A DNA stretch of 19,950 bases from a virus (taxonomy: Duplodnaviria > Heunggongvirae > Uroviricota > Caudoviricetes), in the IMG/VR virus record IMGVR_UViG_2778261164_000003; one strand, 5' to 3'. The notes beneath the pieces were generated by a model. The model searched no databases. It was not told where the DNA came from and saw only the letters and a list, made by a program, of their open reading frames with translations. Both the position numbers and the translations under genes were made by a program. Of this stretch, positions 15,459-19,239 are shown piece after piece. The stretch's first letter is position 1, and every line of letters starts with the position of its first letter.

Positions 15459-15541
15459 TTGGAAATCATTCAATACTCGCACTATCGGAAGTTCACCAGC
15501 CAACCGCAGCACGTTCTTGCATACGACATGCCTGCGGTTTC
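15459..15541 (+). repeat. Hairpin-containing repeat, copy A
   Basis: About 83 bp, roughly 87% identical to copy B. Contains CCGCAGCACG-loop-(C)ATGCCTGCGG followed by TTT. Confidence 0.7.
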
Positions 15542-15684
15542 AACTCCCGCCAGCTCCACCAATCATGATTGGACGGTTAAGGACAACACCAATAAAAACA
15601 GGAAGTTAGCAGTCTCAGCAGGACACCGACCAGACGGTGAGGAGACAAAAAAGGATACGCAAAGGAGCCGCGGCTCCCGAGTGA

Positions 15685-15720
15685 CAAAAAAGCCCGCTTA
15701 TGCGGGCTTTTTTGTTTTTT
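15685..15720. terminator. Bidirectional intrinsic terminator after the Bro-N gene
   Basis: AAAAAAGCCCGC-TTAT-GCGGGCTTTTTTGTTTTTT: GC stem flanked by an A-run and a T-run. Confidence 0.7.
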
Positions 15721-15730
15721 TCCCTCAAGC

Positions 15731-16492
15731 TCACTGACGTGTTCTTGCCTCAACTACTTTCTGGTATATAGCGATAGCTTCATCAACCAAAGCTAATGGA
15801 TAGCAAGAATTTATATTCAATCCGGAGGGGCACTTAATTCTTTCTGCTCCACGTTCACTACGCAATTTTTCACACCATTGCCAAAGTTCCTCAACTGAAT
15901 AGGTATCCAAACCTAACTCCATCAATCGTTGAGGAACACTTCTGAACTGAGACAAATCTCTTAAACTTTCTAACGAGTTAACTTTTAGTTCAACTTGGTT
16001 TACTCTACTTTCTAACTCTTCACGTTTTTCTATTTCCATTACCAATGCTTGAACCGTCTGCTGCAGACTGTTAGCAAAAGCACTCAGTTCTGAACGTTCT
16101 TGTTTAGGTGGCGGAGGATATACACCAAATTCACGAATAGACGGAAGGACCTGATGAAAAAGCCAGCGTTGGAATTTTTTCCCCGCAGCAGTAGTATCCT
16201 GAGCAAGTACTCTATATAGACCTGGTTCAGTAAGAAATACCTCAGAGATAGTTTCACCATCCACGACAAGAGAAACATTCCTAAACTCATCTGGATCTAA
16301 AGTTTTTATTACCGCTCTTATTACAGTGAGCAAGCTTTGAGAAGTCTTTCCATCCAGTTTTCTGTTCTCAGCAGAAAGCGTTCTTAGCACATCTGAAAGT
16401 GAAACAAAAATCTGCCCTTTTTCATTCATGCTACGGATATAATTTTCTCCACACTCTCCTTCGTAGCATAATTGTAACAAATTCTTTTGCAC
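15731..16492 (-). CDS. Bro-N domain protein with C-terminal coiled-coil region (antirepressor-like), 253 aa
   Basis: N-terminal YIRSMNEKGQIFVSLSDVLRTL and FQRWLFHQVLPSIREFGVY match the Bro-N pattern. GTG start at 16492 with AGGAGG 5 nt upstream. Confidence 0.6.
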   Translation of the reverse strand: MQKNLLQLCYEGECGENYIRSMNEKGQIFVSLSDVLRTLSAENRKLDGKTSQSLLTVIRAVIKTLDPDEFRNVSLVVDGETISEVFLTEPGLYRVLAQDTTAAGKKFQRWLFHQVLPSIREFGVYPPPPKQERSELSAFANSLQQTVQALVMEIEKREELESRVNQVELKVNSLESLRDLSQFRSVPQRLMELGLDTYSVEELWQWCEKLRSERGAERIKCPSGLNINSCYPLALVDEAIAIYQKVVEARTRQ

Positions 16493-16770
16493 GCCATCCC
16501 CTCCTTTTTTTATGGATTATACATCCTATAAACATGTTGTCACCGAAAGGGAAAAGCATAAACCCAATTTATGTTCCACAAGATGTTCAAAAATCAAACA
16601 ACCATATAGCTGAGGAGCACAAAAGAGCAAAAGTTTACCAACCCCATATATCCATACAGCACATAAAATTGACACTACATGTGGTATTTTTTAAGTTACG
16701 CCTTGCACCATTTCATGATTTTATGTAGATTGTCATCACACGCTGAGATTAAAAAATTCTACAATTTTTG

Positions 16771-16799
16771 TTGATCTTGAGTTTGGTTTTTAGTATAAG
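16771..16799 (+). promoter_or_regulatory. Sigma70-like promoter for the HTH/peptidase operon
   Basis: TTGATC, 17-bp spacer, TATAAG, about 25 bp upstream of the ATG. Confidence 0.4.
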
Positions 16800-16825
16800 T
16801 GAGCATGGATTGTAGGAGGCGCAAC

Positions 16826-17176
16826 ATGGTAACTAGCTTTGGTAAGACTCTCAGAAAAATGAGAATAGACCGGGGTATGGTGCTCAAAAATATGGCTGAT
16901 CTGTTAGGCGTTAGTTCGGCTTACTTATCCGCCATTGAATTAGGCAAAAGAGCTATACCGGACTCATTAGTAAATACGATTGCAACAACTTTTGAGCTTA
17001 GCGGACAAGACATCATCAATCTCAAGAAACAGGCAGAGATTTCTCAACCGTCCATTAAGGTTGATATGTCGGATGCAAATGAGCAGAACAAAGAACTAAT
17101 GCTTGTTTTTGCTCGTAAATTTAAGGACCTGAGTCCAGAGCAACTCGATAAGCTTAATAAAATGTTAAAGGACTGA
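16826..17176 (+). CDS. XRE-family helix-turn-helix transcriptional regulator, 116 aa
   Basis: LKNMADLLGVSSAYLSAIELGKR HTH motif. AGGAGG 7 nt before ATG 16826 (track start 16799 is GTG). Confidence 0.85.
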   Translation: MVTSFGKTLRKMRIDRGMVLKNMADLLGVSSAYLSAIELGKRAIPDSLVNTIATTFELSGQDIINLKKQAEISQPSIKVDMSDANEQNKELMLVFARKFKDLSPEQLDKLNKMLKD

Positions 17177-17179
17177 ATA

Positions 17180-17713
17180 ATGATTGCGAAACGAGAACTT
17201 GGCCATCGCGTTTCACCTCTCAGCACCAGCATGATTAAATCATACGCTCATCGTCTGAGAGACGTTCTTCAGATATCAAATCACACATATCTGAGACTGG
17301 ATGTATTACTAGAAGGTCTTATGGCCTCAGAAAGCATTGAGCTAGAAATTGTTGAAGATCATGAACTGCCCAAACGCTATGCAGTGACTTATCCAGATAA
17401 GAACAAAATTGTTTTACAGCGATCTGTTTACGATGCAGTGTGCAATGGTGAGAACCATGCGAGATTCACTGTTGCGCATGAACTTGGTCATTTAGTCATG
17501 CATCGCAATCAAAGTATCTATGCACGTAATAAGACTAGTGGAGGGCATAAAATCTATGAAGACAGCGAATGGCAAGCAGATGTTTTTGCAAGCCACTTCT
17601 TAATTGACTCAAGACTAGTTTTGCCCACAATGACTGTTGAAGATATAAGCAAAACATTTGGTGTCAGTCAACAAGCGGCTGAAACCTGGATGAGAAAAAA
17701 TGCAAAAAGATAA
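17180..17713 (+). CDS. ImmA/IrrE-family zinc metallopeptidase, 177 aa
   Basis: HEXXH motif in TVAHELGHLVMH. Start lies 4 nt after the HTH stop, with AAAGGA Shine-Dalgarno. Confidence 0.85.
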   Translation: MIAKRELGHRVSPLSTSMIKSYAHRLRDVLQISNHTYLRLDVLLEGLMASESIELEIVEDHELPKRYAVTYPDKNKIVLQRSVYDAVCNGENHARFTVAHELGHLVMHRNQSIYARNKTSGGHKIYEDSEWQADVFASHFLIDSRLVLPTMTVEDISKTFGVSQQAAETWMRKNAKR

Positions 17714-17720
17714 CGAAAAA

Positions 17721-17743
17721 GCCAGCGAACCGCTGTCGCTGGC
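17721..17743 (+). terminator. Weak terminator-like hairpin after the peptidase gene
   Basis: GCCAGCGA-ACCGCTG-TCGCTGGC followed by TTCTCCT (poor T tract). Confidence 0.3.
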
Positions 17744-17838
17744 TTCTCCTATCGTAAGCAAATACGAAAAACTTGGCGGTTGTGAGTATACGCTTACCTT
17801 AGGTTTTGTCAACAGCGAAACTTTACAGGTAACACGAT

Positions 17839-17982
17839 ATGACCATTGAAAAAGCTGTATCTGAGGAATACATCACAATTTACCGTCCTTTTATTACGGT
17901 CAAAGGTAAACGGATCTTTGCTCGTCAAAAAGGCTTGGCAGCCTTTCCTATCAAAATTCCTGCCTCTAAGTATCGAGGATAA
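17839..17982 (+). CDS. Small hypothetical protein, 47 aa (absent from the ORF track)
   Basis: MTIEKAVSEEYITIYRPFITVKGKRIFARQKGLAAFPIKIPASKYRG. AGGTAA 8 nt upstream; followed 15 nt later by a terminator. Confidence 0.35.
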   Translation: MTIEKAVSEEYITIYRPFITVKGKRIFARQKGLAAFPIKIPASKYRG

Positions 17983-17996
17983 TCTTTGCTAATCTT

Positions 17997-18021
17997 AGGC
18001 CCTTTTCTAGGGCCTTTTATT
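17997..18021 (+). terminator. Intrinsic terminator after the 47-aa ORF
   Basis: AGGCCC-TTTTCTA-GGGCCT followed by TTTATT. Confidence 0.5.
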
Positions 18022-18133
18022 ACACTTCTGTTACGCGCACCACAGATAGAGTTTCAGCTAAAACTTTTGTTCATACCTAGGAGTCTGCTGACGAGTGGTT
18101 TGTTCACTAATAAACACGTAAAAACGGTAACGG

Positions 18134-18215
18134 CTGGACATCATTCAATATTCGCACTATTGGAAGTTCACCAGCCAGCCACAGCACGTTCTTGCATACA
18201 ACGTGCCTGCGGTTT
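18134..18215 (+). repeat. Hairpin-containing repeat, copy B
   Basis: About 82 bp matching copy A. Hairpin CCACAGCACG-loop-CGTGCCTGCGG followed by TTTTT. Confidence 0.7.
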
Positions 18216-18403
18216 TTGAGACCGGTCCGATCATCAAACGAAACATAAAATTAGCTCACACTATGAGGAAAAGTATCTTTTTTTACTATGTAAATTCAAA
18301 GAATTAGCCTCATTTACCCGATAGTTTTCTCAACACTACTGGTTGTGAGCCCTTGCAATGTTCATTAATATACGTCTCACAAATAATTCATAGATATTGC
18401 AAA

Positions 18404-19177
18404 ATGGATATTACTGAGTTTCCTTCTGGAGTAATTGAACACCTTGGCTGGTATGTATACCGATTGATTGATCCGAGGGACGGAAGCACCTTCTATGTAG
18501 GGAAAGGCAAAGGTAACCGCGTATTTGCCCATATGCGCGGTGAAGTGGCAGCGACTGATGATGACGAGTTACTGAGCAACAAGCTAAAGCAAATTAGAGA
18601 AATAAGGTTAGCAGGACTTGAGGTTATCCATGTCATCCATCGACACGGAATGACTGATGAAAAGACGGCGTACGAAGTTGAAGCAGCACTTATTGATGCC
18701 TACCCTGGGTTAACGAATATCATGAATGGTGCTGGCAGCAATGAATTCGGCGCCGCGCATGTCAAAGAGTTGATAGCAACATATCAACCCGAAACCATAA
18801 CATTTCATCATAAAGCATTAATGATTTCCGTTAACAGAAGTGCAAAGGATTCAGAGCTTTATGATGCGGTTCGATTTAGCTGGCGCATTAATGTCTCTCG
18901 CGCCAGCCAAGCAGAAGTCATTCTTGCTACTGTAAGGGGGATCGTTCGAGGGGTTTTCATTGCTGATAAATGGCTCAAATCAACACGTGAAAATTTCCCT
19001 ACGATGAAATACTGGGACGAGGATCCGGACTTTGAGGCAACACAAAGTTCTCGCTATGGTTTTGAAGGTCGAGAAGCCCCACCTGAAATAGCAAATCTTT
19101 ATCTTGGAAAAAAAATACCAGATGAATTAAGAAAAAAAGGAGCTATGTCCCCGGTCCGTTACTCACCTAATTTTTGA
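18404..19177 (+). CDS. GIY-YIG nuclease-domain protein, 257 aa, with uncharacterised C-terminal domain
   Basis: [29 protein letters not shown] matches the UvrC-type GIY-YIG pattern (GVYRM...IYVGKAK...R). Track start 18353 is TTG; first ATG at 18404. Confidence 0.7.
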
Positions 19178-19197
19178 GTCTTTAAGTGATAAGCATA

Positions 19198-19239
19198 AAC
19201 CGCAGCACGATCTTCTTCCATACGACGTGCTACGGTTTC
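19198..19239. repeat. Hairpin-containing repeat, copy C; likely bidirectional terminator between convergent genes
   Basis: CCGCAGCACG-16nt-CGTGCTACGG (9 of 10 bp paired) matching the 3' part of copies A and B. Flanked by T-rich tracts on both strands. Sits between the GIY-YIG stop (19177) and the invertase stop (19238). Confidence 0.6.

Follow-up and report, generated by a model that had tools for sequence, protein, structure and literature searches.

Short conserved noncoding sequences at the joints of mosaic lambdoid genomes, and terminators carried by moron cargo, have reportedly been described in the modular theory of Susskind and Botstein, the moron model of the Hendrix laboratory, and the boundary sequences of phage HK620. 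Bidirectional terminators of convergent phage operons, the defense hotspots of P2 and P4, and the attC sites of integrons offer further points of comparison. At the 3' end of Klebsiella dinI, RNase E generates DinR, an Hfq-linked product of 157 nucleotides (nt), and its authors left open whether other dinI 3' ends yield small RNAs (sRNAs) (PMC10907235). Here, we analyzed a repeated noncoding element in IMG/VR virus record IMGVR_UViG_2778261164_000003, a caudoviricete sequence of 19,950 nt (the window, to which all positions refer unless stated otherwise). The window holds two full copies (A and B) of a 107-nt unit and a third copy (C) consisting of the unit's terminal hairpin alone. We propose that this element is probably, although by no means certainly, a shared and often bidirectional terminator hairpin joined to a remnant of a 3' untranslated region (3'UTR), and that its copies provide short homology for cassette exchange at a hotspot near a prophage end.

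A repeat search of the window returned A and B as a direct repeat of 107 nt at 87% identity; the runner-up pair was merely 34 nt at 74%, and the background consisted of chance pairs of 20 to 34 nt. The direct repeat of about 87% identity reported in the first-pass annotation, a reading made from the sequence letters and their open reading frames, is thereby borne out and grows by about 25 nt on its 5' side. Copy C is too short for a repeat search and was detected by a hidden Markov model (HMM) of the hairpin alone, built on 78 independent copies. Scanned across the whole window, this model gave exactly three matches, all on the plus strand (A, 15501 to 15539, E 7e-12; B, 18176 to 18214, E 2e-10; C, 19198 to 19237, E 1e-6), and C, first described as a partial copy of the repeat's 3' end, was confirmed as a hairpin-only member of the family. 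The copies and their hairpins are as follows.

15434 to 15540, plus strand: unit copy A, lambda type, a conserved 5' segment of about 70 nt plus the hairpin (nhmmer E 3e-32)
18109 to 18215, plus strand: unit copy B, dinI type (nhmmer E 3e-31)
15504 to 15537, unstranded: hairpin A, an 11-bp stem with a bulged C and one C.A mismatch, partly degraded (fold and HMM)
18179 to 18212, unstranded: hairpin B, with one A.C mismatch and a bulged C, followed by TTTTT (fold and HMM)
19197 to 19238, unstranded: copy C, the hairpin alone, between the convergent stops of PD-T4-3 and pin (fold and HMM)

The shared hairpin motif given at first pass was nearly right, with the correction that every copy has one stem defect: a C.A mismatch in A (CGACATGCC), CCACAG where the motif has CCGCAG in B, and CTACGG in C, which makes a C.A pair on the plus strand and a G.U pair on the minus strand. 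The stem is followed by TTTC in A, by TTTTT in B, and in C by TTTCATTT on the plus strand and TTTATGCTT on the minus strand. Folding of hairpin C gave a free energy (dG) of -16.3 and z of -4.3 on the plus strand and a dG of -22.5 and z of -4.5 on the minus strand; z was -2.6 (plus) and -2.1 (minus) for B and -0.5 (plus) and -0.9 (minus) for A. As the earlier reading had it, C lies between convergent stops, that of the GIY-YIG gene at 19177 and that of the invertase at 19238 to 19240, and it is probably a functional, bidirectional terminator of pin and PD-T4-3, with greater predicted stability on the minus (pin) strand. No plus-strand gene lies upstream of A, which therefore terminates nothing in the window.

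Outside the window, the unit was matched in 5412 of 5426 complete Escherichia coli genomes, at 17,769 places (median of 3 and maximum of 10 per genome), where it is almost never annotated, and in 196 phage records, among them Stx phages, mEp460, HK97, phi80, and lambda. From a sample of about 220 loci came 104 distinct full copies, of which 78 were aligned, with a mean identity of 88%. The distribution is linked to prophages, the exception being a copy fixed between ecpE and ykgJ in essentially all E. coli, which has a fully re-compensated stem and itself lies within a prophage remnant. Rfam searches of the window at gathering and permissive thresholds gave only subthreshold matches to the 3' hairpin of CssrB, and a full-text literature search with 19- to 21-nt strings of the unit found no paper.

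Conservation across the 78 aligned copies runs from GTAAAATC to the last stem base (CTGCGG) and falls off sharply on both sides. The hairpin consensus, AACCGCAGCACG-N11-CGTG(N)CTGCGGTT, is GC rich and forms an 11-bp, singly bulged stem in which the bulged base is variable or absent among copies. With this structure specified, 92.8% of alignment cells are paired, and changes occur on both sides in 6 of the 11 stem pairs. Double-change cells number 22, versus 5.3 +/- 2.0 in shuffles (0 of 500 reach 22) and far fewer in slid controls, although the copies are related by descent, so that the shuffle control overstates significance and is no probability. The hairpin, with its compensated stem, is under selection. 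The compensatory-change analysis suggested at first pass thus succeeded for the terminal hairpin and found no covariation elsewhere in the unit, where the stems GGCTGG/CCAGCC and TTCAATA/TATCGAA are invariant and hence uninformative on pairing. Wobble pairs are symmetric between strands (35 G.U versus 31 A.C), as expected for a two-way element, and do not allow a strand to be assigned.

Several features agree with transcription termination. The compensated 11-bp stem, with a z of about -4.4 in C, is the stable, GC-rich stem-loop of intrinsic terminators, and at least 5 T residues occur within 8 nt after the stem in 62% of 118 distinct copies. Bare hairpins recur, one of them after PD-T4-3 with three different right-hand partners, and lambda has a hairpin-only copy (lambda 22573 to 22608) between the stops of the convergent genes tfa (orf-194) and ea47. 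A true CssrB (Rfam RF02799; 230 bits, minus strand) has its end precisely at the hairpin closing a methyltransferase cassette (locus L127, 2551 to 2730); this end, our sole and indirect pointer, suggests that an RNA 3' end may form at the hairpin. The window's own matches to CssrB, which lie on the minus strand and cover just model positions 141 to 180, score 15 to 22 bits, below the threshold of 76.

The element is also linked to module boundaries. In the window, A and B enclose the Bro-N/XRE/ImmA genes, and B and C enclose the GIY-YIG gene, a layout that agrees with the first reading. The features concerned are listed below.

15539 to 15561, plus strand: attachment site (att) core, the last 23 nt of K-12 ssrA (transfer-messenger RNA [tmRNA]), with 27 of 28 nt matching over 15534 to 15561, followed by ATCATGATTGG (0 chance matches)
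15683 to 15716, unstranded: strong terminator-type hairpin after Bro-N, A rich before the stem and T rich after it (terminator scan; left breakpoint of the EcoRII swap described below)
15731 to 17713, unstranded: cassette 1 (A to B), with Bro-N (15731 to 16492, minus), an XRE/CapH-like gene (16799 to 17176, plus), and an ImmA/CapP-like gene (17180 to 17713, plus)
17997 to 18015, plus strand: terminator-like site ending cassette 1, ahead of the dinI relic (terminator scan)
18353 to 19177, plus strand: cassette 2 (B to C), a GIY-YIG protein that is the PD-T4-3 anti-phage defense gene (PADLOC PDLC04031, E 2.7e-140, full length; Pfam LEM-3_GIY-YIG)
19238 to 19828, minus strand: Pin/Hin-type serine DNA invertase, the conserved right neighbor of the hotspot (Resolvase and HTH_7)

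Comparison of the roughly 220 related loci placed homology breakpoints at 15534 to 15542, 18109, 19198 to 19200, and 19238 to 19240, which are edges of the unit or of the hairpin. Related loci share a thrW-side anchor and pin and differ in between. In some, the unit abuts pin directly, its own hairpin taking the place of C; others have the unit, PD-T4-3, and a hairpin followed by pin or by an ssrA-like core; others have the two-cassette array of the window; others have an EcoRII restriction-modification (R-M) pair in place of BroN/XRE/ImmA; and in a fifth type the block from 15534 to 19238 (99% identical) is flanked left and right by foreign sequence. The unit has more than 10 downstream contexts, which include an ssrA-like core plus ATCATGATTGG (as in A), the PD-T4-3 leader (as in B), the antisense 3' end of pin (as in C), the antisense 3' end of tfa, several T-tracts, and several T-poor sequences. 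By count of complete genomes, the junctions are unit to ssrA core (264), lambda-type unit to PD-T4-3 (127), unit to pin (87), and dinI-relic unit B to PD-T4-3 (36).

Thirty-six loci contain at least two hairpins, and all 34 of 34 spaced pairs have the same orientation, with discrete spacings. Between hairpins lie nine cargo types: a class-I methyltransferase, PD-T4-3, lambda ea47, EcoRII R-M with PD-T4-3, BroN/XRE/ImmA, an SDH/ClpP-like protease, a MASE4-GGDEF protein, a 517-amino-acid unknown, and a 1180-amino-acid unknown. The PD-T4-3 cassette occurs together with its own 3' hairpin in three or more left contexts and three or more right ones. A comparison with genomes for variable cargo, recommended at first pass, therefore shows the unit flanking at least nine cargo types, and of the options offered then, recombination scars marking module exchange is the best supported, given breakpoints at unit or hairpin edges and alternative cargos in the same slots. 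The contrary outcome considered at the time, a conserved coding end or a known repeat family without association with boundaries, did not materialize: the unit is noncoding and tightly tied to module boundaries.

Upstream, the full unit is connected with a phage dinI gene. In intact phages, it starts about 8 nt past the stop codon of an 82-amino-acid DinI homologue, and it directly follows dinI in Stx, mEp460, and PhiR phages; the phage dinI promoter contains two LexA boxes that match CTGT-N8-ACAG perfectly. The unit's upstream contexts number at least six, among them the dinI end, a lambda type, a Qin type, and HK97's own terminator. The dinI location thus holds for intact phage copies; in the window, B follows a promoterless relic, and A and C have no dinI. 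The two upstream sequences in the window are these.

About 18018 to 18110, plus strand: phage dinI relic, truncated at its 5' end to the last ~30 codons and with an internal stop, reading ...VTRTTDRVSAKTFVHT*ESADEWFVH* (compared with the intact 82-amino-acid phage DinI)
15359 to 15433, plus strand: lambda-type extension preceding copy A, with homology to the intergenic sequence between lambda ea31 and ea47 that immediately precedes lambda's own unit (comparison with lambda, locus L148, 3420 to 3510)

The latter, about 75 nt beyond unit A, is common to lambda, and this flank recurs in many loci. Lambda's full unit occupies lambda 24162 to 24265 on the leftward strand, between ea31 and ea47. The chromosomal K-12 dinI 3' end is a short terminator unrelated to the unit.

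A, B, and C are copies of a conserved noncoding element belonging to the accessory, b-region-like end of temperate phages of E. coli. In our proposal, the full unit, of about 100 nt, would be the 3' untranslated tail of a LexA-controlled phage dinI, traveling with a hairpin that would form the functional core, either as a factor-independent, often bidirectional transcription stop or as a structure protecting 3' ends, and that would separate leftward accessory genes from the convergent late tail-fiber/pin operon. Since many cassettes end in the same 40 to 100 nt, the copies would supply short homology for recombination. RecA and Rad52-type recombinases act on short, diverged homology, and host RecA or phage Rad52-type enzymes could insert, delete, or swap cassettes via unit copies, homologous recombination being the exchange mechanism that we infer. 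The resulting array would read unit A, ssrA core-BroN-XRE-ImmA, dinI'-unit B, PD-T4-3, hairpin C, and pin, with A and B as carried-along relics recording two acquisitions: one in which an ssrA-phage attP-BroN-XRE-ImmA block was joined to a lambda-type unit, and a second that brought a dinI-unit fragment leading PD-T4-3.

A number of observations weigh against this proposal, in addition to the shared descent that inflates the shuffle contrast. In the EcoRII swap, the left end falls at the other terminator (15732) and the right end falls inside an internally deleted unit, so the unit is not the sole junction used. No recent precise recombinant between A and B, that is, a deletion derivative of the window lineage, was found; the genomes in which the unit leads straight to PD-T4-3 carry a different hairpin variant and are merely 92 to 96% identical. 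RNAalifold alone, run on the 78 copies, returned 4 weak pairs and no convincing consensus. At most 3 T residues follow the stem in 24% of the 118 distinct copies, where the edge of conservation would cut off the U-tract needed by a classical intrinsic terminator, and a simple terminator scan flagged none of A, B, and C, because their loops of 9 to 11 nt exceed its limit. With retrieval bias controlled, the 5' segment of about 60 nt is conserved at about 70 to 90% per column, which is close to the level of the stem, and termination by itself would not account for it. Finally, termination at the hairpin is itself something we infer from sequence features. The idea of a recurring terminator cassette, put forward at first pass, consequently holds for the hairpin family, with its stem compensation, T-runs, convergent sites, and CssrB end, and does not carry over to A and B in the window: the stronger terminator-like sites at 15683 to 15716 and 17997 to 18015 mean that neither is needed there, and the latter site, upstream of B, is a better terminator than B.

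How much of the pattern reflects function may be questioned. Under one alternative, to which we would assign a small but appreciable chance, the copies are functionless, neutral debris that recent recombination has scattered from one abundant phage segment, and it is incidental that they lie at module edges. A and B are visibly decayed, with stem mismatches, a truncated dinI, and no gene upstream of A, and the high mean identity among copies fits recent spread. Neutral debris would not, however, be expected to keep its stem pairing through double changes, as at the fully re-compensated ecpE-ykgJ copy, nor to have its conservation stop at the stem base across many independent contexts, nor to mark the end of the CssrB sRNA. 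A different function is also conceivable. The unit could be a regulatory sRNA, a prophage counterpart of Klebsiella DinR, given that its position just after the dinI stop fits, that it ends in a stem-loop, often with a U-run, that two LexA boxes stand in the phage dinI promoter, and that its 5' part stays conserved even when unused for retrieval. We regard this as unlikely. The unit has no homology to the 3'UTR of chromosomal dinI in E. coli, matches no Rfam family, and shows neither covariation outside the terminator hairpin nor wobble strand bias; the 5' part is conserved no better than the stem; and dinI, a promoter, or a U-tract is absent from many copies. A hyper-conserved seed in the 5' segment was rejected once retrieval bias was controlled, and at the conserved TAAAAT left edge no acceptable -35 was seen by eye in any upstream class and no promoter was found by scan. 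The unit is no more complementary to the ftsZ initiation region than dinucleotide shuffles are, 74 to 89% of them pairing at least as well, and targeting of ftsZ in the manner of DinR or DicF was rejected on this duplex energy comparison. The named prophage sRNAs Pas, AgvB, AsxR, Esr41, and STnc100 are located elsewhere; in the literature, the Pas-sRNA preprint and the EcOnc papers treat other prophage regions, and a search on "CssrB" gave only perovskite papers. The first-pass option of an sRNA gene with its own terminator thus finds no promoter, Rfam family, strand bias, extra 5' conservation, or outside covariation behind it, and an RNA derived from the 3'UTR of phage dinI is possible.

The sharpness of the junctions raises the question of whether the hairpin is instead a structure-specific recombination site, like attC or the hairpin of an HUH transposase, at which a dedicated enzyme captures and reshuffles cassettes into an integron-like array. 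The edges at the stem base are sharp on both sides in more than 10 contexts, the arrays have one orientation, the palindrome is imperfect and bulged, the PD-T4-3 cassette moves among contexts with its own 3' hairpin, and a recombinase gene stands at the end of the array. Against these points, lambda, HK97, and Stx phages have the element without pin, the bulged base varies or is missing, breakpoints also fall inside the unit and at other terminators, and no conserved crossover motif was seen at the junction by inspection; we give this alternative very little credence. The enzymes that might be involved, the flanking serine recombinase Pin or the HNH/GIY-YIG nucleases often found beside the element, are equally improbable candidates. 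Pin's known role is inversion of a tail-fiber segment at sites on its other side (compare the IR-L/IR-R annotation of phage LLS), and similarity of the hairpin flanks to Pin/Hin crossover sites was rejected by eye, the outer half-site bases being wrongly oriented. It seems just as doubtful that the unit is part of a phage attachment site, a P-arm with integrase, IHF, and Xis sites, in ssrA-integrating phages, with A as an attR-type junction. In A and in about 15% of distinct copies, the ssrA 3'-end core or a degenerate version of it follows without a gap, and the stem's terminal GCGG overlaps sequence of the tmRNA T-stem. Identity to the ssrA 3' end, however, belongs to the sequence beside A (15539 to 15561) and not to the repeat itself, and what follows most copies is not an att core but pin, tfa, T-tracts, or cargo genes. 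The full unit of lambda lies several kilobases from attP (24.2 kb versus 27.7 kb), the phages concerned use different sites (lambda attP and the ssrA-type attP of LLS), and LLS has an ssrA attP without the unit. We therefore favor a terminator hairpin whose copies also provide homology for recombination.

From 12774 rightwards, the window matches E. coli strain H7 at 99.9% identity; two further features lie at this breakpoint or between it and copy A.

12772 to 12818, minus strand: thrW relic, the last 47 nt (att core), the left limit of the shared prophage-end region and the H7 breakpoint (alignment to K-12 thrW)
13235 to 14947, minus strand: ABC ATPase of the OLD/AriA/GajA/NsnB class, 570 amino acids (PADLOC E 1e-17 to 3e-31)

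The thrW relic is a CP4-6-type att core, beyond which H7 has a CP4-like island with CbtA/YeeU, not a P4-like satellite. In the window, the P4-like satellite lies left of the relic, with a tyrosine integrase (11419 to 12678), a primase-like gene (5951 to 8623), and, at its distal end on the minus strand, a complete DRT type 3 pair (Drt3a, 2309 to 3586, E 1e-129; Drt3b, 300 to 2318, E 8e-204). Short inverted and direct repeats cluster at 5726 to 5920 (e.g., 5734 to 5766 and 5888 to 5920, 33 nt at 79%, motif GGTGAAACA/TGTTCCACC), and this region, just downstream of the primase-like gene, is reminiscent of a P4-type origin or iteron region. To the right of the relic is the att-proximal accessory end of an e14/LLS-type myovirus prophage, which closes with pin and then tail-fiber genes. 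The slot between the relic and unit A contains different genes in other loci; here, the ABC ATPase is followed by a 94-amino-acid open reading frame with no family match (region 13235 to 15261, minus strand), and the two are possibly a two-gene defense system. Cassette 1 has 75% identity to the attP-proximal genes 30, 28, and 27 of phage LLS, and its XRE/ImmA pair, divergent from the Bro-N gene, resembles the CapH/CapP regulators of defense operons (E 6e-11 and 5e-15). Homology to LLS begins at 15534; the LLS attP is annotated as a "tmRNA pseudogene" and adjoins a Bro-N homologue, and the ATCATGATTGG that follows the ssrA core can be read, from sequence, as the P' arm of LLS-type phages. ARAGORN called neither a tRNA nor a tmRNA gene anywhere in the window, which makes att relics of the ssrA and thrW pieces.

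Other loci add observations on the element and its neighbors. The ecpE-yagU interval (L004 and L147; K-12 304,183 to 304,494 and neighbors) contains a dinI relic, the unit, ykgJ, and then a match to Rfam IS009; it looks like an old remnant of a prophage b region, present in essentially all E. coli. In it, ykgJ occupies the slot that ea47 or PD-T4-3 holds in phages, and the hairpin there may, to judge from its placement, now be the terminator of the ecp operon. Internally deleted units occur: in L053, a 5' part is joined to ATCATGATTGG; in L150, the loop and 3' arm directly follow a dinI end; and in L058, the first 32 nt of the unit are joined to foreign DNA. The element itself thus undergoes illegitimate breaks. 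In lambda (L148), ea47 (lambda 22686 to 23918) is bounded by the full unit and the hairpin-only copy, in the slot of PD-T4-3 or EcoRII elsewhere, and just upstream of this cassette are ea59 (AAA ATPase) and ea31 (HNH), which makes the uncharacterized b-region genes ea47, ea59, and ea31 candidates for defense functions. An exact-pattern scan of one genome per species confined the unit to Escherichia and Shigella, bar a few tiny contigs and two metagenome-assembled genomes (L130 and L131). These contigs, of 262 to 401 bp and low coverage, come from Alkalicoccobacillus, Chryseobacterium, and Lysobacter assemblies (L132, L139, and L140) and hold exact unit copies; contamination of the assemblies of unrelated bacteria with lambda or E. 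coli DNA is the most likely source, and the two metagenome-assembled genomes likewise look contaminated.

A protein-coding reading of the unit was also ruled out, since single-nucleotide indels between copy classes (alignment columns 10, 53, and 70) leave no coding frame. Small open reading frames showed no conserved frame on either strand, the minus-strand peptide beginning MISS ranging from 13 amino acids up to read-through into antisense dinI. RefSeq/PGAP annotates a pseudogene of 87 nt, labeled "capsid protein," on the unit's minus strand (L005, 5005 to 5091, and other genomes), a call that is probably spurious and seeded by a misannotated database protein. A second caution for annotation concerns Rfam IS009 (RF02111), which matches with 218 bits inside the lambda tail-fiber assembly gene orf-194 (L148, 5252 to 5450; lambda 22316 to 22514); this "sRNA" family thus appears to model a fragment or relic of tfa coding sequence.

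About 99.7% of complete E. coli genomes carry the element, as does lambda, and still it has neither an annotation nor an Rfam family. Should it prove to be a shared terminator that also supplies recombination homology, it would offer a sequence-level handle on the att-proximal trade of morons and defense genes. It could also serve as a search key, in that sequence between two same-orientation copies is a candidate accessory or defense cassette; our sample already holds PD-T4-3 and EcoRII in this position, plus lambda Ea47 and the 517- and 1180-amino-acid proteins, whose functions are unknown.

Among described systems, the unit resembles DinR in lying at the 3' end of an SOS-regulated dinI and in ending in a terminator hairpin, and it differs in following a phage dinI paralogue, in having no ftsZ complementarity, and in lacking similarity to the chromosomal dinI 3'UTR of E. 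coli (K-12 being the sequence compared). CssrB, a catalogued Shigella chromosomal sRNA, has the unit hairpin, read on the minus strand, as its last 40 nt, whereas its other 140 nt are unrelated to the unit. REP and ERIC repeats, which are scattered through intergenic regions of the core genome, are presumably unlike it in sequence. The attC sites of integrons are likewise imperfect palindromes that contain an unpaired base, and each cassette of the array has one, all facing the same way beside a recombinase gene; here, however, the neighbor is a serine invertase (Resolvase/HTH_7) with another known role, no IntI tyrosine recombinase or attI adjoins it, and the tyrosine integrase at 11419 to 12678 belongs to the P4-like satellite beyond the thrW relic and is not an attC-type partner. 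The tails are heterogeneous, no attC consensus was seen by inspection, the element occurs in phages without the recombinase, and the breakpoints are not fixed.

With the Rho-independent bidirectional terminators of convergent phage operons, the hairpin shares a GC-rich 11-bp stem, a frequent downstream T-run and upstream A-run, a position between convergent stops (C and lambda tfa/ea47), and an RNA end at a copy (CssrB). It departs from ordinary terminators in its long loop (9 to 11 nt), its bulged stem, the quarter of copies without a T-run, and its reuse at thousands of sites, often with a conserved leader of about 60 nt. Like the defense hotspots of P2 and P4, the window has a variable slot near an att end, conserved flanks, and defense systems, such as the satellite's DRT type 3, but its boundaries are a small noncoding repeat rather than core genes, and several cassettes can stand in series. 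A further parallel is with mosaic linkers and moron terminators, which are also short, conserved noncoding module edges, with cargo bringing its own terminator between core genes. Unlike these, a single defined element stands at both ends of at least nine cargos, much of it anti-phage defense, and it spans siphoviruses (lambda, HK97, and Stx phages) and e14/LLS-type myovirus prophages. Shared terminators and linkers at mosaic junctions, and morons that bring their own terminators, are already established in lambdoid phages; what is new is this near-universal element and its link to defense slots.

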